From Frankiales bacterium (GTDB taxonomy: Bacteria > Actinomycetota > Actinomycetes > JAFAQI01), in the NCBI GenBank assembly GCA_025980325.1, contig JAICXQ010000005.1, positions 8,034 to 72,033 of the forward strand: a stretch of 64,000 nucleotides of DNA, written 5' to 3'. Shown piece by piece: positions 2,650 to 50,925 of this stretch. Both the position numbers and the translations under genes were made by a program. The notes beneath the pieces were generated by a model. It saw only the letters and a list, made by a program, of their open reading frames with translations. It was not told the origin of the DNA and made no database searches. Within the stretch, counting starts at the first letter, position 1, and every line of letters begins with the position of its first letter.

Positions 2650-4139
2650 GCGCCGTGTGGCTCGAACTTCGAGCACGGCTGAGGCGCAGCGGGAACTGGT
2701 GGCGGAGTCTTGTAGATCGCGGTGTAGTAGTCGGTTCCGCAGGCCATCTGATACTGGCAGCCGGTCTCCGCCGCATCGTCCACGGCCCAGTAGAAGCACA
2801 AGGGTGCGTTCACCGGCCCACAATCATCGGCGGAGTAGATCGTCGTCTTGTTCTCGTCAGTAGCCGTGCTCTGTGACTCGACCGAGAAGTCGAGGCCGAG
2901 AGGTCCCGACCCGATTGAGGCACCGTACCCGTTCTGGTACGTCTGGCTCTGTCCGGCCGTGATCGCCCTCCACTGGTCTTGCTGCAGCGGGAAGACGAGG
3001 CTCGCGCTTTGCTCCTCCATCCCTTCCAGTGTGTCGTTATTCGTCGGGAAGTCCGGCGTCGAGGTCGTCCCACGCGGGTTCCATTCATGCGGCTGCCACA
3101 ACTCGTGTGTTTCGGTTGAATGGTCTCCGTTATTGCAATGGAACGTAATCGTCTGGTGCTGCCACGTCGCCGGGACAACGAGTGCGCGCGCGCCCTGACC
3201 CGCGACGGAGACCCCGCCGCTTTGGTTAGCGTAGGTCGCTTGATCGCCGGTCGCGAGCGTGAAATTCACACTTCCGGCAGTGGTGTACTTCGTCTGCGTT
3301 AGTCCATGGAGGTCGATTCCTAGCACGACGGATGACTGGGTCACCCGCGACCAGGTAGTTTCGAGAGACTCACCCATCGCGCGGTAGGGCGTATTGCGAA
3401 CATCGGCCTGGTACGAATTCCCGGAATAGGAACCCGCGCCGTAGACCACCCCGACATTCACGGTGCCGTCGACCGACGTCAGACCGCTCGTTGTGATCGT
3501 GAACGCCGGCGGGGTCGGGGGATGTGCCGTGTCAGGGTTATATCCGCATGGCCCCGTGGGCGCAGGATCGCCGACTGGGGGTAGCTGGCCGATGTTGGTC
3601 ACCGGCGGAACCTGAACAAAGAGATTTGGCGAAATCGCGGCGTTAGCGACCGGCTGCTGGGCGGTGATGTTGAAGAACTCGATACCGGTGAACGGAGCGC
3701 CGGTTACATCGTTACCCGTGGAGACCGCGAAGTAGTTGCCGTCGGGGTCGGGGATCGCGCTTGGCTGCGGCAGCGGCACCGTGACGGTTCCCGTTGATGA
3801 GAACGCTGGGACGGGGAGGATTGGCTGCTGCACGCCTTCGGGCTGGTCAGCGCGATAAACCTCGAACTGCGCGTACGCGAGTGGGTGGCCCGCATTGTCG
3901 AGCGCTGTAAGCACCACGCCCGCTGTGATGGGACTGCTCACGGTGGGTGCGGCTGGGCCTGCTGGGATCGTCGGTATACCGATCGGACCGGATATGGCGG
4001 CGACTGCGAACCCCGCGAGGGCGAGGTAGCTCTTTGGAGGCCTTCCTCCGAGCGCGGCGGTGATTGGGTCGACGGCAGCGAACCGTCGAGCAATTCTGAT
4101 CATCTGAGGTGGCTCCGATACAGGCTGGGCAGGAGGCAT
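2640..4139 (-). CDS. secreted beta-rich protein of unknown function (499 aa)
   Basis: long ORF with hydrophobic N-terminal segment, Thr/Ser/Gly-rich body and Cys-rich C-terminus. Confidence 0.75.
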   Translation of the reverse strand: MPPAQPVSEPPQMIRIARRFAAVDPITAALGGRPPKSYLALAGFAVAAISGPIGIPTIPAGPAAPTVSSPITAGVVLTALDNAGHPLAYAQFEVYRADQPEGVQQPILPVPAFSSTGTVTVPLPQPSAIPDPDGNYFAVSTGNDVTGAPFTGIEFFNITAQQPVANAAISPNLFVQVPPVTNIGQLPPVGDPAPTGPCGYNPDTAHPPTPPAFTITTSGLTSVDGTVNVGVVYGAGSYSGNSYQADVRNTPYRAMGESLETTWSRVTQSSVVLGIDLHGLTQTKYTTAGSVNFTLATGDQATYANQSGGVSVAGQGARALVVPATWQHQTITFHCNNGDHSTETHELWQPHEWNPRGTTSTPDFPTNNDTLEGMEEQSASLVFPLQQDQWRAITAGQSQTYQNGYGASIGSGPLGLDFSVESQSTATDENKTTIYSADDCGPVNAPLCFYWAVDDAAETGCQYQMACGTDYYTAIYKTPPPVPAAPQPCSKFEPHGACD

Positions 4140-4199
4140 GAGGCCCCCTGCAATCTTCAGTACGAACGAATAGCGCTGGCATTACCGACATTGGCTAGA

Positions 4200-4907
4200 T
4201 CAAGGCTCGGGCCGAGGCGGGTCGCGGCCGGGAGGTTCGGTGTCGCCGTGGTGACGTTCGGTGTCGCCGTTGTGCGTTGCTGCCGACGATGGGTGCACGA
4301 CGTGATGTCGGAACATGCCGCGCACCGCAGTCCCGAAGTGGTCGATGGTTCTTGCGATGTCCCGGAGGTCGGGCGGTCGCGGGTCGATGAGGTGCGCGGC
4401 GAGGTCCGCAGTGTCGGCGATGAGGCGCGCGAGCACCTGTTCTAGTGGCTGGTCGTCGCGGGGTGCGATGTGCCTGTCTGTGACCCGTGGGTCCTCTCGT
4501 CCGGCGCCTTCGGCCGGGGGCCGCCCCGGTTGACCGCGGTCGCCGTCGTCCCCGAGGGGGCTAGGGTCGCCGACTTGCGCCGTCACGCTGCCGCGCGCCG
4601 GACGAGAGGAAAACTCGGGCCATCCCAGCCCGTTCAACGCGGCTTCAGACCCAACTGCGCTGAGCGTGTCTAGCTCGACTGCTAGCGCGGTCAGTAGGAC
4701 GCCGACGCGAGTCGGGAAGTCATCGCGGACTCGACCGTCGATGACTTGGGCGCCGATCTGCGCCAGATTGGCGAGCCGTTGCCAGAACTTCGGGCTCGGC
4801 GGGGTGCGCTTGGCGTCTAGGGCGTGCCCGACAATCGTGTCGTCGTGGAGCCAGGCGGGAGGCCCTGACCATCTCGATAGGCGCAGGGGAATCACGCTGG
4901 CGGTCAT
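4200..4907 (-). CDS. hypothetical protein
   Basis: 235-aa ORF co-oriented with neighbours; no recognised motif. Confidence 0.45.
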   Translation of the reverse strand: MTASVIPLRLSRWSGPPAWLHDDTIVGHALDAKRTPPSPKFWQRLANLAQIGAQVIDGRVRDDFPTRVGVLLTALAVELDTLSAVGSEAALNGLGWPEFSSRPARGSVTAQVGDPSPLGDDGDRGQPGRPPAEGAGREDPRVTDRHIAPRDDQPLEQVLARLIADTADLAAHLIDPRPPDLRDIARTIDHFGTAVRGMFRHHVVHPSSAATHNGDTERHHGDTEPPGRDPPRPEP

Positions 4908-5003
4908 TCGCGAGCCTCCTTCCGGCTGAATCAGGCATAGGGGTACCTACGCGCGGCGCGCATGTGCGCCGCGCGTTGGTTGGGCGTTCTTAGTTAGTGG
5001 CGG

Positions 5004-5462
5004 CTACGTGCCGAAGCCCGCGCTGTTCTGTTGCGGCGTCCACTCCGTTTCTTCGCTGGCGACGGCCACGAGTTCGGGGGTGGCGCTGGTCTGAACGCCG
5101 GTCGTGTCGATGGGCGGGATGTGGCCAAAGAACAGCGTCGCCGTGAAGCAACCGTCCTCGATGCCGTTGGTCGAGACATCCGGTGAAATACACGTGTCGA
5201 AGGTCGGCCCAAAGCCCGTCTGCTGGTAGTGGATCTGTGTGCCATCCCCACGCGTCCCGTCGACCTCGAACACCCATTCACCCGTGCTATCGGCGATTCC
5301 ACCCGCGCAGACATGGAACGTTGTCGTCGTGGGATAGGTGACTCCGACGGACGCGTGCGCGGTGGGCAATGGGTCGGCAACGGCGCTCGGAATGCCGGTG
5401 GCGCAGGTTCCCGCGGCCAGCAAGGTGCTGGCCGCGATCGCGCGAACTCGACGGTCGTTCAT
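5004..5462 (-). CDS. secreted protein coupled to ECF sigma factor
   Basis: signal peptide MNDRRVRAIAASTLLAAG...AVA; ATGA overlap with sigma stop codon. Confidence 0.75.
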   Translation of the reverse strand: MNDRRVRAIAASTLLAAGTCATGIPSAVADPLPTAHASVGVTYPTTTTFHVCAGGIADSTGEWVFEVDGTRGDGTQIHYQQTGFGPTFDTCISPDVSTNGIEDGCFTATLFFGHIPPIDTTGVQTSATPELVAVASEETEWTPQQNSAGFGT

Positions 5463-44699: not shown

Positions 44700-44723
44700 T
44701 ACGGCCGAGGCCCGACGTACTAC
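44696..44723. terminator. probable bidirectional terminator
   Basis: GTAGTACG...CGTACTAC stem between convergent stops. Confidence 0.5.
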
Positions 44724-45718
44724 TGCGCGGTGCCGATTACGAGGTCGGCCGAGCCGCTGCCGACGAGGTGCCACGTCAGTGTGAGCGGCTGGCCGATCTG
44801 GTCCGGCGGTCGCAGGAAGCAGGCGTGCTGCCGGGTCTCCGACTGGCCGGGTGGGAGCAGCGGCACGTTCCCGTGCAGGCAGCCCACCTGCTGGCCAGTG
44901 GAGTCGACGAATCCGGCATAGCTCGAGTACAGCTTCGTCCCGCCTTGCGGCGTGAGCGTGAAGTTCGCGTCGCTCACCGAGACCGGCTCGGACGATCCGT
45001 TGCGGACGCTGAACCCGACATCGATCCCGCGGGCGTTCGAACCGTCGTCCTTGGTGACGACGCGGACCGCGTCGATGTGCAATACGACACCGCCGAGGAC
45101 GCTGCACGGCTGCGGTGAGCAGGCGGTCGAGTCGGGCGCGCTGTACTGTGGCACCGGCGGCAGCGCGTGCCCGGGTGTCGCCGCCGACCAGCCGTCGAGC
45201 GGCGTGCCGCAGTACGGTTCGGCGAACTGCAGATGTCCGGTCGCGGTCGCGCCGTTCATGGTGCCGCTGACGGTGAGCGTCGCCTGCGGTCCGCCGGTGG
45301 TCGCGAACTCGTACTTGTCGGAGAACGCGCCGCCGCTGATGGCGATCCGGTTCGGATCGGTGAAGGTCTGCAACTGGTACGACGAACCGCCGCTGCTCGC
45401 GCACGAGACCGCGAACGTGCCGTGCAACTCGCCGACGGTCCGGCCGGAGCCGTCGACGGTGAACCCGATGTGCTGGATGTTCTGACCCTGCCCGGCGTAC
45501 TCGCCGCTGCGCACGCCGGCGGCCGGATGCTGCGACGTGGACGACGGCGACGACCCGCCGGAGGTCGACGCGACGACCGCGACCACGACGATCACTACAA
45601 CCGCCGCGACCGCGCCGGCCGGCAACAGCCAGCCCGGCCGGCTCCGCCGCGCCGGAGGAGGCGGCGGCGGGGGAGGCGGCGGCGGAGGCGGTAAGGGTGT
45701 GCTTGCCCCCGTGGTCAC
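44720..45718 (-). CDS. Pro-rich single-TM protein with Ig-like extracellular domains
   Basis: poly-Pro, TM, C-terminal V.FSVRNGS.EPVSVSDANFTL pattern (DUF4352-like); start uncertain. Confidence 0.7.
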   Translation of the reverse strand: MTTGASTPLPPPPPPPPPPPPPARRSRPGWLLPAGAVAAVVVIVVVAVVASTSGGSSPSSTSQHPAAGVRSGEYAGQGQNIQHIGFTVDGSGRTVGELHGTFAVSCASSGGSSYQLQTFTDPNRIAISGGAFSDKYEFATTGGPQATLTVSGTMNGATATGHLQFAEPYCGTPLDGWSAATPGHALPPVPQYSAPDSTACSPQPCSVLGGVVLHIDAVRVVTKDDGSNARGIDVGFSVRNGSSEPVSVSDANFTLTPQGGTKLYSSYAGFVDSTGQQVGCLHGNVPLLPPGQSETRQHACFLRPPDQIGQPLTLTWHLVGSGSADLVIGTAQ

Positions 45719-45800
45719 ACCGACGACGGTAAGCGTTGAGCTGACCACGGCGCAGCCGAATGCCGCGTCGCCACGTCGTGCTCGCCCGGCGGCGCAGCGA

Positions 45801-46193
45801 TCAGCCGGTGACGACGACGGCGACGCTGGCGACGTCGCTCGCCGGGATGGTGAGCGTCGTGAAGTCGGCGCTGCCGGCGCCGGTGCCGTCGAGCGTGCCG
45901 GTCTTCTCGCCGAGGGTTGTGCCGCCGGCGCCGAGCAACGTCACCCGGAAGCTCATGTTCGCGCAGCCGGTGCCGGTGCCCGACGTCGTAACCGTCGCGG
46001 TCGACACGTCGTACGTCTTCGCGTTGGCGGTCGGCGTCGTGCCGTAGCTGACGGCGGCGGCCGAGTTGCACGACGTGACCGTCGCGTTGCCGGCGCCGAG
46101 GCTCGAGCTGTTCACGGTCAGGGTCGCCGCGAACGCGGTGACGCTGCCGAACACGACGACGCCCGCGCCGAGGGGGAGCAGGTACTTCTTCAC
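45801..46193 (-). CDS. SipW-substrate-like secreted fibre subunit (paralog D)
   Basis: GSVTAFA|ATLTVNSSSLGAGNATVTSC...C...VAVVVTG; GAGG RBS. Confidence 0.75.
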   Translation of the reverse strand: MKKYLLPLGAGVVVFGSVTAFAATLTVNSSSLGAGNATVTSCNSAAAVSYGTTPTANAKTYDVSTATVTTSGTGTGCANMSFRVTLLGAGGTTLGEKTGTLDGTGAGSADFTTLTIPASDVASVAVVVTG

Positions 46194-46299
46194 GATGAAT
46201 CCTCGTTTCTACGTGTCCGGGAGAGATGCGGTTGTTGTGTCGGCTTGAGTTGTCGAGGGTGGATAGTCAGGAGGGAGCAGATTGCCTGATCGGCGGGGA

Positions 46300-46857
46300 C
46301 TAGTGCGCACCGATCGCGGCGTGCCGGCCGGGTGGCCGCCGGCGCGTTCGCTGCCGGCCGGTTCGCCGCCGGCTCGAAGCCGCGGGCGACGGGAGCACCA
46401 TGACCGCGACGGTGAGTGCGGCGACGAGACCGCCGAGGTACATCGGCCTGGTCAGCGTCGCGAGCTTCGTCCCGACGCCCGGGATGTCGTAGCGGACCCG
46501 CCCGACGATGTCGGCGGTCTTCGGATGCCACTCGTCCGGCAGGTTCTTGTTGTCTCCCTTCGTGACGTAACCGGTCGTGCCGTTGCCGCCGATGAGCCGG
46601 TGGATCACCAGCGCGCCGGCGCCGAACTCGCCCTTCGGGATGCGGTAGGCGACGGCGTCGCCGATCCGGTACGACGACTGGCGGCGTACGACGGCGAGAT
46701 CGCCGAGATGCAACGTCGGGTCCATCGAGTGACCGTCGACGCGGACATAGGCGACGGCACCGCCGAGTGATTGCGGCCAGAACATCGCCGGCAGCGCGAA
46801 CGTTGCCACCAGCAACATCCATCGGGCGTACCGAAACCCTTGGCGCACGGCGAGCAT
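46300..46857 (-). CDS. sipW: SipW-type (ER-like) signal peptidase I
   Basis: VDGHSMDPTLHLGDL, VIHRL (His general base), TKGDNK.LPD; N- and C-terminal TM. Confidence 0.85.
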   Translation of the reverse strand: MLAVRQGFRYARWMLLVATFALPAMFWPQSLGGAVAYVRVDGHSMDPTLHLGDLAVVRRQSSYRIGDAVAYRIPKGEFGAGALVIHRLIGGNGTTGYVTKGDNKNLPDEWHPKTADIVGRVRYDIPGVGTKLATLTRPMYLGGLVAALTVAVMVLPSPAASSRRRTGRQRTRRRPPGRHAAIGAH

Positions 46858-46861
46858 CCCC

Positions 46862-47500
46862 TCAGAACTGAACGGTCGTCGACGATTGCGCGAGATCGCT
46901 TCCGCAGTTGCGGCCGCTCCGGTCCTTCAACGCGGCGTCCGGAGTCCACACCGCGGCGTTGCCGGAGCTGACGACCGACGCGGTTCCGGTCGTCTGGCTG
47001 CCCAGCGTCACCGTCAGCGTCGTGCTCGTCGCCGCGACACTGAGCGCCGTGGTGCTCGAAGCGAAAGCGATCGACGTGCTGCCGGTGTCGTAGCCGGCCG
47101 AACCGAGATCGACGACACCGATATGGAAGCCGGTGGCACAGGTCAGCGACGAGCCCGTGACCTGCAACGTGTCGTCGGCACCCGAAGCGCCGTTCACCAC
47201 CGACCATTGCAGCGTCAACGACTGGGACGACGACGAGTTGGACCAGCCGCTGCACAACGTCGTCTCGTCGATCGGTTGCGGCCAGGCGAACGTCACCGAG
47301 TCGCCGGCCTGCACCTTGCCGACCGTCCCGTTGCCGCTCTTGTTCGTGAACGACAGCCACGCCGGGAACATCGCGGGGGTGGACACCGCGCCGGCGCCGA
47401 GATGTGCCGATGCCAACGTGATTCCGGACGCCCAGGCGACACCGGTCATGAGCAGTACGACGCCGGCCGTCGCCACCATCGCCCGAGCCGGCCGGCTCAT
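46862..47500 (-). CDS. SipW-substrate-like secreted protein (paralog C, longer)
   Basis: GVAWA|SGITLASAHLGAG; ATGA overlap with upstream gene. Confidence 0.7.
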   Translation of the reverse strand: MSRPARAMVATAGVVLLMTGVAWASGITLASAHLGAGAVSTPAMFPAWLSFTNKSGNGTVGKVQAGDSVTFAWPQPIDETTLCSGWSNSSSSQSLTLQWSVVNGASGADDTLQVTGSSLTCATGFHIGVVDLGSAGYDTGSTSIAFASSTTALSVAATSTTLTVTLGSQTTGTASVVSSGNAAVWTPDAALKDRSGRNCGSDLAQSSTTVQF

Positions 47501-47886
47501 GGGCCGACCACCGAGAGGTACCCGCCCGCGACGGACGTCGCGGTCGCTGCGCCGGTCAGCGAGGCGAAGGTCTGAGTGGTGGCGGTCAAGGTGACCGGGC
47601 CGGCGCTGGCGAGCGAGGTATTGGACGAGTCGACCAATGTCAGCGACAGCGACCCGCCGATGCACGAGGTCGGGATCGAGGTCAGGACGACGGTGGTCAC
47701 GACGTTCGCCGTCACCGTCCAGGTGACGCCGACGCCGGACAAGGATCCGCACGAGCTCGTCGCGGTGAACGCGCTGCCCACCTGCTTCGGGCTCGGCCCC
47801 ATCGCCGTCGCGGCCGCGCGTGCCGGCCACGCCAGCAGCGAGGCGATCAGCGCGGTGAGCGCCGCAGTGGCGAGATCGTTGCGCAC
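47497..47886 (-). CDS. SipW-substrate-like secreted protein (paralog B)
   Basis: signal peptide; QVGSAFTATSSC...PTSC...YLSVVGP. Confidence 0.7.
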   Translation of the reverse strand: MRNDLATAALTALIASLLAWPARAAATAMGPSPKQVGSAFTATSSCGSLSGVGVTWTVTANVVTTVVLTSIPTSCIGGSLSLTLVDSSNTSLASAGPVTLTATTQTFASLTGAATATSVAGGYLSVVGP

Positions 47887-47893
47887 GGCGTCA

Positions 47894-48325
47894 TCAACCC
47901 GTGATCACTACCGAGACGCCGGTCACGTTCGCGGCGGCGATGTTGCTCGCGGTGAAGTCGGGCGCGGCGTTCCCGGACGCGTCGAGGGTTCCGGTCACCT
48001 CGGCGAGCGAGGCGTTGCCGGCCCCGGTGAGGGTCACCTTGTAGGCGAAGCCGTTGCACGCCGCTGCGGTGGTGACCGGCGCGGTGGCGACCTTGTAGCC
48101 GGGAAGCGATGCGGAGTACGCCGTCGTGTAGGTCACCGTCGCGCCGGAGTTGCAGCTCGACACGCTCGCGTTTCCCGAGCCCAAGGTCTTGCTGTTGACC
48201 GACAGGGTCGCGGCGAACGCGGTCACGCCGCCGAAGATCACGACCCCGGTCACGGCCGGGACGGCGAAGCGGGCGATACCGCGAGCGCTTCGGCGCCGAG
48301 GACGCCGTTCCGCATGTGAACCCAT
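47894..48325 (-). CDS. SipW-substrate-like secreted fibre subunit (paralog A)
   Basis: GGVTAFA|ATLSVNSKTLGSGNASVSSC...C...VSVVITG; clear paralog of 45801-46193. Confidence 0.75.
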   Translation of the reverse strand: MGSHAERRPRRRSARGIARFAVPAVTGVVIFGGVTAFAATLSVNSKTLGSGNASVSSCNSGATVTYTTAYSASLPGYKVATAPVTTAAACNGFAYKVTLTGAGNASLAEVTGTLDASGNAAPDFTASNIAAANVTGVSVVITG

Positions 48326-48539
48326 GTTGCTGGTTTCGGGGTTCACCCGAATTGAGCGCATCCCCCAGCGGTGCTATATCTACTCATCTTTTCCTACTAG
48401 TCCCGGGCCGCCACGAGGGCGGGATTTGGCCCGATTCCGCCGAAGAAACTACTCCCGAGTATCTTTCGCACCGATCATCCATGCGCAGTCGTATCCGCAC
48501 TGGAATAGCCCCGGCAACATCCGTTTCCGGACTACTGGC

Positions 48540-49670
48540 TCAGGTGACCGACTCGTAGATCGCGAGGGTCTGCTCGGCGATCGCGGGCCAGCCGAAGTCG
48601 CGCTCGGCCCGCGCCCGGCCGGCCGCGCCCATGTCTTTCGCCCGCGCGGGATCGTCGAGCATCGACTCGATCGCGGTCGCGAGCCCGGCTTCGTACGCCG
48701 TCGCGTCGCCGGCGACGTAGGGGATCAGCACGCCGGTCTCGCCGCCGACGACGACCTCCGGAATGCCGCCGACGTTGCTCGCCACGACGGGTACGGCGCA
48801 GGCCATTGCTTCGAGGTTGACGATGCCGAGCGGCTCGTACACCGACGGGCAGACGAACACCGTCGACGACGACAGCAACTGCATCAAGTCGTTGCGCGGC
48901 AACGGATCCCGCAGCCACACGATGTCGAGCCCGGCGTCGCGCAGCGCGGTCACCTCCGTCTCGACCTCGGCCGCGATCTGCGGCGTGTCCGGCGAGCTCG
49001 CGCACAGCAGCAGCTGCGCGGATCGGCGTACCGCCCGCATCGCGCGAAGCAGATGGGGCAGTCCCTTCTGCCGCGTGATCCGGCCGACGAAGATGACGAC
49101 CGGGCGGGCCGGATCGAGGCCGTGCGCGGACAACATCGCCGGGTCGGGCCGCGGCGCGAAGAGCGACGTGTCGATGCCGTTGTGCACGACATGCACCCGA
49201 GCCGGATCGACCAGTGGGTACGCCGCGAGCACGTCGGTCCGCATCCCGGCCGACACCGCGATGACCGCATCCGCGGCTTCGATCGCGGTCTGCTCGGCCC
49301 ACGACGAGATCCGGTATCCGCCGCCGAGCTGCTCGGCCTTCCAGGGGCGCCGCGGCTCGAGCGAATGCGACGTCATGACGTGCGGCACGCCGTGCAGCAG
49401 CTTGGCGAGATGGCCGCCGAGATTCGCATACCACGTATGCGAATGCACGAGGTCGCGATCGGCGACCGCGGCCGTCATCGACAAGTCCGTCGCGAGCACG
49501 CGCAGCGCGGCGTTCGCGCCGTCGAGGCGATCCCAGCTTCCGTGCGCGGCGAACGTCTCGACCCGCAGGTCGACCAGCCGGTCGAGCTCGCGGGCGAGGA
49601 ACTCGACGTGCACGCCGGCACCGCCGTAGACATCCGGCGGCCATTCCCGCGTCAGCAACCCGACTCGCAC
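48540..49670 (-). CDS. glgA: GT4 glycogen synthase / maltose-1-phosphate synthase (GlgA/GlgM)
   Basis: [48 protein letters not shown]; divergent from glgC. Confidence 0.95.
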
Positions 49671-49689
49671 GTGCGACACACTAGGTGGC

Positions 49690-50925
49690 ATGGCGCAGCG
49701 GGGCGTGCTCGGCATGGTGCTCGCCGGCGGCGAGGGCAAGCGGTTGTGGCCGCTCACCGCCGACCGGGCGAAGCCGGCCGTTCCGTTCGGCGGGATCTAC
49801 CGGCTGGTCGACTTCGTGTTGTCGAATCTCGTCAACGCCGACTACCTGCGCATCGTCGTGCTGACGCAGTACAAGTCGCATTCGCTCGACCGGCACATCT
49901 CGCTGACATGGCGGATGTCGTCGCTGCTCGGCAACTACGTCACGCCGGTGCCGGCGCAGCAACGCCTCGGCCCGCGCTGGTACCAAGGCTCCGCGGACGC
50001 GATCTACCAGTCGCTCAATCTCGTGTACGACGAGCAGCCGGCGCACGTCGTCGTCTTCGGCGCGGATCACGTGTACCGGATGGACCCGCGGCAGATGGTG
50101 CGCCAGCACGTCGAATCCGGCGCGGGTGTCACCGTCGCCGGCATCCGGGTGCCGCGGGCGCAGGCGTCGTCGTTCGGGGTCATCGGGACCCGGGACGGGC
50201 GCCGGATCGACGGGTTCCTGGAGAAGCCTTCGGACCCGCCTGGATTGCCCGACGATCCGGAGTCGTCGTACGCCTCGATGGGCAACTACGTGTTCTCGAC
50301 CGACGTGTTGCTCGACGCGGTGCGCAAGGACGCGTACGACGAAGGCTCGGTGCACGACATGGGCGGCAACGTCATCCCGATGCTGGTGGCGCAGGGCGCC
50401 GCGCAGGTCTACGACTTCGCCGACAACCACGTGCCCGGGACGAGCGAGCGCGACGCGGGGTACTGGCGCGACGTCGGTTCGATCGACAGCTACTACGACG
50501 CACACATGGATCTCGTGTCGGTCACGCCGGTTTTCAACCTCTACAACCGGCAGTGGCCGATCCTCACGCACACGCCGCCGTTGCCGCCGGCGAAGTTCGT
50601 GCACGACGAGCCGGGCCGCACCGGTCACGCGATCGAGTCGCTGGTCTCGCCCGGGTGCATCGTCTCCGGCGGCGAGGTGCGCCAGTCGGTGCTGTCACCG
50701 GGCGCGCACGTGCACAGCCGCGCGATCGTCGAAGGCGCGGTATTGATGCACGGGGTCGACGTCGGCCGCGGCGCGCACGTACGCCGCGCGATCGTCGACA
50801 AGGGCGTCGTGATCCCGCCCGGCGTACGGGTCGGCGTCGACCACGACGAGGATCGCGCGCGCGGCTTTCACGTCAGCGACGGCGGCGTCGTCGTCATCGG
50901 CAAAGGCCAACCGGTCCGCGAGTGA
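49690..50925 (+). CDS. glgC: glucose-1-phosphate adenylyltransferase
   Basis: [36 protein letters not shown]. Confidence 0.97.

Follow-up and report, generated by a model that had tools for sequence, protein, structure and literature searches.

Within a 64,000-nucleotide stretch of a Frankiales bacterium genome (assembly GCA_025980325.1, contig JAICXQ010000005.1), which we call the window, five minus-strand genes lie head to tail at positions 45801-48325 in the order A-B-C-sipW-D. We propose, with moderate confidence, that this cassette encodes an extracellular fibre: its subunits would be processed by the SipW-type signal peptidase encoded among them and joined through N-terminal donor-strand complementation, and they appear to be unrelated to, and much smaller than, the subunits of TasA fibres.

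Gene content, conservation, the predicted fold and the residue couplings are results given below; the scheme for cleavage, polymerisation, fibre polarity and the parts played by B and C is inferred. Proteins A to D would be exported by Sec, and SipW would cut between A22 and A23 (D numbering), freeing an amphipathic N-terminal strand. The neighbouring subunit would receive the freed strand at an edge bounded by strand 3 and strand 6 (the C-terminal strand), and the subunits would thereby be chained into a thin, polar and chaperone-free fibre – as in TasA-type filaments – with a Cys42-Cys77 disulfide stapling each core. A and D would be the polymerising subunits. B, a divergent subunit with a degenerate donor motif here, may act as an acceptor-only cap at one end; C, with its donor motif on a different body, may plug the free acceptor at the opposite end, where it would act in adhesion or anchoring. 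At the position of C, cassettes of other classes encode a CBM96/DNRLRE carbohydrate-binding domain.

The subunits, their shared N-terminal motif and the predicted fold

That the five open reading frames (ORFs) are real genes follows from two observations. The GC content of third codon positions (GC3) is 0.88-0.98 in the cassette frames (0.88 in A, 0.98 in D), as against 0.58-0.73 in the overlapping plus-strand ORFs, and comparison with the orthologous locus of the same genus reveals a third-position bias of substitutions in A and sipW. The source assembly is a metagenome-assembled genome (MAG) of 2.7 Mb, 68% complete. The arrangement of the cassette is far beyond chance, and its gene order is repeated in the related loci examined; the reading out of all five ORFs on the minus strand bears out the order given in an earlier, sequence-only reading of the window.

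The two major-type subunits are encoded by genes A (48325..47894, minus strand, 143 amino acids, with an alternative upstream ATG at 48361) and D (46193..45801, minus strand, 130 amino acids), the latter preceded by a 106-nt spacer and provided with its own GAGG-type ribosome-binding site. Their close paralogy, claimed from the letters alone, is upheld by 47% identity (BLASTP E 1e-29), and against the family profile they score E 1e-54 (A) and 8e-52 (D). Both have GVV(I/V)FG(G/S)VTAFA immediately before the predicted cleavage site and ATL(S/T)VNS..LG(S/A)GN immediately after it, two cysteines, and a C-terminal V(S/A)VV(I/V)TG. In A, predicted cleavage between A38 and A39 would release a protein of 105 amino acids and about 10 kDa, with two cysteines and the end VSVVITG; in D, predicted cleavage between A22 and A23 would release one of 108 amino acids. 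These two alanines (D numbering) are conserved at 98% and 95%, with Ala or Gly at position -3. Mature A and D, each of about 10 kDa, consist to 69-72% of Thr, Ser, Ala, Gly and Val, with 6-7% charged residues and an isoelectric point of 4.4-6.1; across the small proteins of the cassette charged residues make up 2-7%.

What unites the cassette proteins is a highly conserved signal peptide followed, after a near-invariant Ala-Ala, by a 14-residue motif, A-(S/T)-L-x-V-x-S-x-x-L-G-A-G. Across 320 sequences the signal h/c-region averages 2.65 bits per column, the motif (residues 23-36) 2.71 and the last strand 2.72, compared with 2.13 for the mature core. The same disparity is seen between the paralogues themselves: the motif of A (ATLSVNSKTLGSGN, 48170..48211, minus strand) and that of D (ATLTVNSSSLGAGN, 46086..46127, minus strand), each read from the translation as the N-terminus of the mature protein and each a proposed donor strand, agree at 11 of 14 positions, against 47% identity overall.

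The remaining two proteins share parts of this pattern, as the sequence-only reading had noticed. Gene B (47886..47497, minus strand, 129 amino acids, GTG start) encodes a divergent, single-copy family member with an ordinary-looking signal peptide. It is not detectable by pairwise comparison and matches the broad family profile at 47524-47826 (E 2.8e-8, 35 bits); both of its cysteines align with C42 and C77 of D, it ends in LSVVGP, and in this lineage it has a degenerate N-terminal motif (AMGPSPKQVGSA). A lipobox in B was considered and rejected: the LTC sequence occurs in two relatives and is absent from the B of the window. Gene C (47500..46862, minus strand, 212 amino acids), whose ATG overlaps the stop of B in an ATGA, encodes a single-copy protein of which only residues 1-39 align with the family (the signal peptide and ITLASAHLGAG; hhalign probability 84%, E 8e-6). 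Its motif, SGITLASAHLGAG (47390..47428, minus strand), was located from the alignments and follows predicted cleavage between AWA and S. The body of C, about 175 amino acids ending in TTVQF, is unrelated to the family core and has no Pfam or NCBIfam match.

The motif also recurs on bodies unrelated to that core – on C of the window, on DNRLRE/CBM96 proteins, and on cassette proteins of 508 and 525 amino acids – and so behaves, at the level of sequence, as a portable module and not as a strand belonging to a single fold.

The mature core is predicted to be a six-stranded immunoglobulin-like (Ig-like) beta-sandwich with two near-invariant cysteines. A first AlphaFold2 (AF2) run, with 37 sequences, gave the core a predicted local distance difference test score (pLDDT) of about 80 and left residues 1-35 disordered. 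A second, on mature D with 148 diverse sequences, gave a mean pLDDT of 81.8 and a predicted template modelling score (pTM) of 0.71; means over ten-residue blocks ranged from 78 to 95 from mature residue 21 onwards, with 84-95 quoted for the core. The modelled strands of D span full-length positions 46-54, 61-70, 81-87, 93-100, 106-110 and 123-129. In both runs the first 12 residues of mature D (ATLTVNSSSLGA) were unpaired, with pLDDT below 50.

Covariation links this loose segment to the core. Mean-field direct-coupling analysis (DCA) of 440 sequences (effective number, Neff, 286) recovers hairpins of the AF2 model, for example P54-T60, G51-S64 and A46-V68, and among its highest-ranking couplings are three between motif and core: S31-M80 ranks first (z 8.3), N36-A125 eighth (z 5.3) and S30-S81 20th. 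The pairings of residues are specific. At 31-80, Ser or Thr goes with Lys, Met or Leu, and Asn or Asp with Gln or Glu; at 36-125, Asp goes with His. Strand 3 and the C-terminal strand, for their part, couple with each other (L87-A125, G88-A122). The motif-core couplings thus imply that the motif contacts the core, probably at the start of strand 3 and at the C-terminal strand – a contact that the AF2 monomer leaves unmet within one chain. A donor-strand subunit should look like this – a six-stranded sandwich whose conserved amphipathic N-terminal strand stays undocked in the monomer model yet coevolves with the edge that strand 3 and the C-terminal strand make up – although the likeness falls short of proof.

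A dedicated peptidase and an unannotated family

The fourth gene, sipW (46857..46300, minus strand, 185 amino acids), encodes an archaeal/Sec11-type signal peptidase I. It scores 61 bits on TIGR02228 (curated cut-off 51.85) and also matches PF00717 and PF10502; the translation contains Ser44 (GHS44MDP), His86 (VIH86RL) and Asp102 (KGD102N), hence an enzyme of the Ser-His type and not a Ser-Lys dyad, in agreement with the sequence-only reading. Hydrophobic segments lie at about residues 13-27 and 139-156, and the tail is rich in arginine. The same assembly encodes two LepB-type peptidases, which would serve general secretion, and, on another contig (C70), a second SipW-type gene; the SipW of the window is therefore an extra, specialised peptidase.

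Whom this enzyme serves is indicated by its relatives and by the reach of the motif. A tree was built from 35 SipW-type sequences, 23 adjoining members of the family and 10 adjoining PF12389 TasA-like genes. A single branch parts the two groups (Shimodaira-Hasegawa-like approximate likelihood ratio test, SH-aLRT, 88), only one change of label is needed, none of 500 label shuffles was as clustered, and the sipW of the window falls among the other family-linked peptidases. At least three genomes in the tree (G000, G027 and G034) have one peptidase of each kind. Moreover, a hidden Markov model (HMM) of the signal-plus-motif segment matched only A and D within the assembly; from this, SipW looks dedicated to its neighbours, and the earlier suggestion that it processes the products of adjacent genes gains support from both results.

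An exhaustive profile search with E limited to 1e-3 recovered 1,192 clusters (50% identity), 360 of which stay within 1e-10; two long repeat proteins (P0123 and P0154), with 12 matched stretches each and scores summed over repeats, were ignored. Nearly all members are 120-150 amino acids long. Word-indexed searches returned 'hypothetical protein' or incidental automatic labels alone, almost all from metagenomes or MAGs, and we found no description of the family in the literature. Judged by sequence, it is an unannotated and unnamed family, with the signature VFGxVxAFAA|SLxVxSxxLGAG ... C ... C ... VxVVI(T/S)G.

In a sample of the phylum, 14 of 401 Actinomycetota genomes (about 3.5%), belonging to 14 of 249 genera, carry the family; the 13 carriers besides the genome of the window all come from classes other than its own. 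A SipW-type gene lies just downstream on the same strand in 10 of these 14 loci, and distant metagenomic members show the same linkage. The order A-B-C-SipW(-D) is repeated in Frankiales and Mycobacteriales MAGs, the close relatives being labelled Frankiaceae, Frankiales or Mycobacteriales bacterium.

Where the ORFs of cassettes were read out, the usual arrangement proved to be one to six major subunits followed by B, C and SipW, with an extra major subunit, D, after SipW in the lineage of the window. In other classes the ORFs comprise one to three majors (ending VVISG or VTITG), a B-like protein (..SGP or ..VGP), a C-like protein and SipW; B-like genes ending in GP, including that of L036, keep the same position in the cassette, and some loci have a different protein at the position of C, or no B-like gene. 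The sequence-only division into major (A, D) and minor (B, C) subunits accords with these counts: A-type genes occur in one to six copies per cassette, B and C in one. Tandem arrays of major paralogues stand upstream of B-C-SipW in two loci, six in L028:3174-6381 and five in L026:4903-7387, and the motif of this subgroup is AGF(T/S)V(T/S)SxT(V/I)VSG in place of A(S/T)LxVxSxxLGAG. At L026:6061-6927 two adjacent copies share one reading frame with only TGA-TAA between them (an in-frame tandem, P0310); in a MAFFT alignment with 118 homologues all of the latter align to copy 2 only.

The proteins at the position of C are of particular interest for the proposed fibre. That of L036 scores 85 bits on PF24517 and 76 bits on NF033679, the DNRLRE/CBM96 models; that of L039 has a precomputed PF24517 hit, and several other cassettes hold clearly similar proteins. 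CBM96 is defined as an alginate-specific binding module (PMC9971899). The C of the window had no match to either model, and the idea that it is a homologue of the DNRLRE/CBM96-type proteins was rejected: hhalign aligns the N-terminal 17 residues alone.

Two loci (L036:6883-7890 and L055:6044-6973) encode the family core domain joined to RTX-type calcium-binding repeats (HemolysinCabind) by a linker rich in Pro and Thr, a fusion which suggests that the domain may carry cargo. The first of these loci also encodes, at 3547-5136 on the minus strand, a 529-residue protein that joins a SipW-type peptidase (TIGR02228, 62 bits) to DUF5305 (PF17231, 53.7 bits); it stands beside a distant family cassette and a small protein whose signal is TasA-style (GTYAFTNSN). 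A cultured carrier, Pseudactinotalea terrae (Micrococcales, GCA_009733845.1), has at L038:6001-8643 a distant, Cys-less relative, then a SipW-type gene and the 525-residue motif protein, and after these a response regulator; its peptidase scores 77 bits on TIGR02228 and was missed by precomputed Pfam hits.

The surroundings of the cassette in the window can be described briefly. Directly downstream of D, at 44720-45748 on the minus strand, is a gene for a 342-residue protein with a run of 12 prolines, one transmembrane segment and a Cys-containing extracellular part; as a component of the system it was rejected, being kept beside the cassette in no related locus, and it has no Pfam match. Near the cassette's other end is a divergent pair, a glgA-like glycosyltransferase gene (48540-49757, minus strand) and a glgC-like gene (49690-50925, plus strand). 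As mechanically called, the 5' ends of the two ORFs share 68 nt, so the true start of glgA probably lies downstream of the listed GTG. The glgA gene is the upstream neighbour of the cassette in MAGs of the same genus too. A search for an upstream RNA element, such as a cyclic di-GMP riboswitch, gave no Rfam match. The sequence-only reading had counted the cassette as a third surface system in the window, beside Tad pili and sortase adhesins; the assembly's sole sortase gene (PF04203) lies elsewhere, on contig C109 at 68806-69225, and the mention of sortase adhesins has no such gene in the window to support it. Its observation that A-D are without LPXTG stands, a motif scan of the four proteins having found no motif of that type.

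Alternative readings and the relationship to TasA

Several observations weigh against donor-strand fibres. At an Neff of 286, DCA also returns couplings between signal peptide and core, which are impossible, at z of about 4-5, so that only the top couplings are trustworthy; moreover, the method is blind to whether a contact is made in cis or in trans. The failure of AF2 to place the motif is weak evidence. Docking in cis is sterically possible, given that the C42-C77 link puts residues 31-36 near strand 3. Foldseek returned no pilin or donor-strand subunit among the structural neighbours of the AF2 models, and no anchoring device (LPXTG, S-layer homology domain or C-terminal transmembrane segment) was found in the cassette. 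The motif of B is fuller in other classes, so its role as an acceptor-only cap may be confined to the lineage of the window. Finally, all carriers with named source records are uncultured, with the exception of P. terrae.

Much of this favours the alternative that survives best, one we consider unlikely and yet deserving of weight: A, B and D would be processed by SipW without polymerising, remaining monomeric or at most dimeric Ig-like proteins of the surface or the medium (adhesins, coat proteins or binding modules). The motif would fold back as a seventh strand, and would be conserved mainly for recognition by the dedicated peptidase. The geometry imposed by the C42-C77 link permits residues 29-36 to reach strand 3 of their own chain, covariation would look the same, the Foldseek neighbours are ordinary complete Ig-like domains, and the cassette holds no recognisable anchor or assembly factor. 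Three findings argue otherwise. With a deep alignment AF2 still leaves the motif undocked in cis despite its strong coupling to the core. The cassette, moreover, has the composition of a pilus operon: one to six major paralogues accompanied by two single-copy minors, one of which bears a carbohydrate-binding domain elsewhere. And the grafting of the motif onto unrelated bodies is hard to explain for an integral strand of one fold.

A second alternative is that the proteins form a hydrophobic sheath or amyloid-like layer on the surface of the cell or spore, with no ordered strand exchange and with SipW acting only for timely release. Chaplins and rodlins form such layers in Streptomyces, and some features fit: the proteins are small, their charged residues amount to 2-7%, Thr, Ser, Ala, Gly and Val make up 69-72%, there are several paralogues per genome, as with chaplins, and the carriers are soil Actinomycetota. 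We nevertheless judge this improbable. A confidently modelled globular beta-sandwich (pLDDT 84-95) and a near-invariant pair of cysteines are neither of them typical of amyloid-forming peptides, and a sheath would leave unexplained both a conserved N-terminal motif coupled to specific positions in the core and a co-conserved C protein with a carbohydrate-binding domain.

The subunits had been labelled 'TasA-like' in the sequence-only reading. As a statement of homology this fails in every search that bears on it. A-D have no match at E up to 1 to PF12389, NF046066, TIGR04088 or TIGR04089, and none of 118 diverse family members matches the TasA or SipW-cognate NCBIfam models. The family profile, run against all PDB chains, found no TasA-superfamily structure and gave chance matches only, to viral F proteins (E 0.02 or higher); hhalign of the family alignment against an alignment of actinobacterial PF12389 TasA-like proteins gave a probability of 0.55%. 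The comparison of fold with TasA-type structures, which the same reading had proposed, yielded generic Ig-like domains alone: Foldseek searches of the PDB with two AF2 models (best E 0.047 and 0.069) returned no TasA, AbpA, thread, CanA or pilin, and the neighbours found were GH2 accessory domains, macroglobulin MG domains and IrmA.

A TasA-like gene is nonetheless present in this genome. A six-frame search for PF12389 gave a single match, at C70:20718-21326, to a TasA/camelysin-like protein of 222 amino acids (42.9 bits; cut-off 22.5). It is encoded directly after a SipW-type peptidase (TIGR02228, 62.7 bits) within C70:20002-21951 (L022:6002-7951), which also contains a further secreted ORF of 198 amino acids; this peptidase and the SipW of the window are 30% identical. 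The pair on contig C70 is distinct from the cassette, so that the MAG, on the evidence of sequence, has two separate peptidase-coupled systems.

Genuine, if far diverged, membership of A-D in the TasA/camelysin (PF12389) superfamily is thus already largely refuted, and has in our view scarcely any chance of being correct: the adjoining SipW-type peptidase, a predicted cleavage between two alanines, as in TasA, and a loose likeness of LGAGxATV to the ASGTLDL of TasA are outweighed by PF12389/NF046066, PDB-profile, hhalign and Foldseek searches that were all negative, by mature proteins of 105-108 amino acids, about half the length of TasA-type subunits, and by a peptidase lineage separate from that of the TasA-linked enzymes.

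Comparison with known systems and implications

If the cassette does build donor-strand fibres, its closest counterpart in organisation is the tapA-sipW-tasA operon of Bacillus subtilis, the source of TasA fibres (PF12389; PDB 8AUR). Both encode a dedicated Sec11/SipW-type peptidase among its substrates, both have major and accessory subunits and a freed N-terminus that is the proposed donor strand, and neither involves a sortase or a chaperone-usher pathway. The resemblance ends there. The cassette proteins have no sequence, profile or fold similarity to TasA, and their peptidase belongs to a separate lineage; mature TasA is a protein of about 26 kDa, whereas the cassette subunit is of about 10 kDa and is predicted to fold not as a jelly-roll but as an Ig-like sandwich of six strands containing a Cys pair; and the genome of the window has, in addition, a separate and genuine TasA-like/SipW pair.

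The comparison extends to the wider TasA superfamily. Its filaments are built from major, minor and tip subunits encoded with a TIGR02228 peptidase (bioRxiv 10.64898/2026.01.04.697558), and its loci – AbpA, AbpX, the Tafi locus with TafE, Sulfolobus threads and the cannulae protein CanA – assemble by chaperone-free donor-strand complementation; DUF5305 is a proposed accessory subunit in the Tafi and AbpX loci (bioRxiv 10.64898/2026.01.04.697558; PMC11821415). The logic of the cassette is the same, with a signal peptidase I, a major subunit, subunit-like minors and a tip or anchor protein, and the distant family cassette of L036, with its SipW-DUF5305 fusion nearby, recalls the Tafi and AbpX loci in particular. 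It differs in that its mature subunits have 105-108 amino acids, against 163 in AbpX (bioRxiv 10.64898/2026.01.04.697558), that the family is unconnected to the superfamily in the searches run, that it is found in Actinomycetota, and that it lacks an acidic calcium-binding signature (isoelectric point 4.4-6.1, 6-7% charged residues).

There are parallels too with the chaperone-usher pilins of Gram-negative bacteria: a small subunit, here predicted to be six-stranded and Ig-like, an N-terminal extension with alternating hydrophobic residues, a hydrophobic C-terminal strand, and an operon that provides major, minor and tip-adhesin subunits. The cassette, unlike these, comes without chaperone, usher, outer membrane or a pilin match in Foldseek, and a dedicated peptidase would replace the assembly machine. 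As for signals, the family resembles the SipW-cognate classes defined by Haft (TIGR04088 and TIGR04089), which likewise comprise actinobacterial exported paralogues with a specialised signal beside a SipW-like peptidase. The proteins of the window and the 118 members searched gave no match to either model, and VFGxVxAFAA-SLxVxSxxLGAG is a different, uncurated signal class.

A broader claim may be entertained, albeit tentatively and with rather less conviction than the fibre itself: that the cassette represents a new class of surface or matrix fibre of Actinomycetota. Its Ig-like, disulfide-stapled donor-strand subunits, of about 105 amino acids, would be the smallest yet seen; assembly would be chaperone-free, a peptidase of a dedicated SipW lineage unmasking the strand; and the strand would double as a portable plug by which cargo domains – CBM96 lectin-type domains or large surface proteins – are recruited. 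With a subunit unrelated to TasA in sequence and fold, such a fibre would be a convergent reinvention of the TasA filament.

The known peptidase-coupled filaments that assemble by strand donation, Bacillus TasA and several archaeal fibres, have been classed in one superfamily; the cassette displays the same genetic logic in what appears to be an unrelated and far smaller family. That family is large and entirely unannotated, and it comes almost only from uncultured soil lineages. Should the proposed fibres prove real, peptidase-coupled donor-strand assembly would have arisen more than once, and structural biology and materials research would gain a minimal building block of 10 kDa. Moreover, 'hypothetical proteins' that are widespread would acquire a function, likely in adhesion or in the biofilm matrix of soil Actinomycetota.

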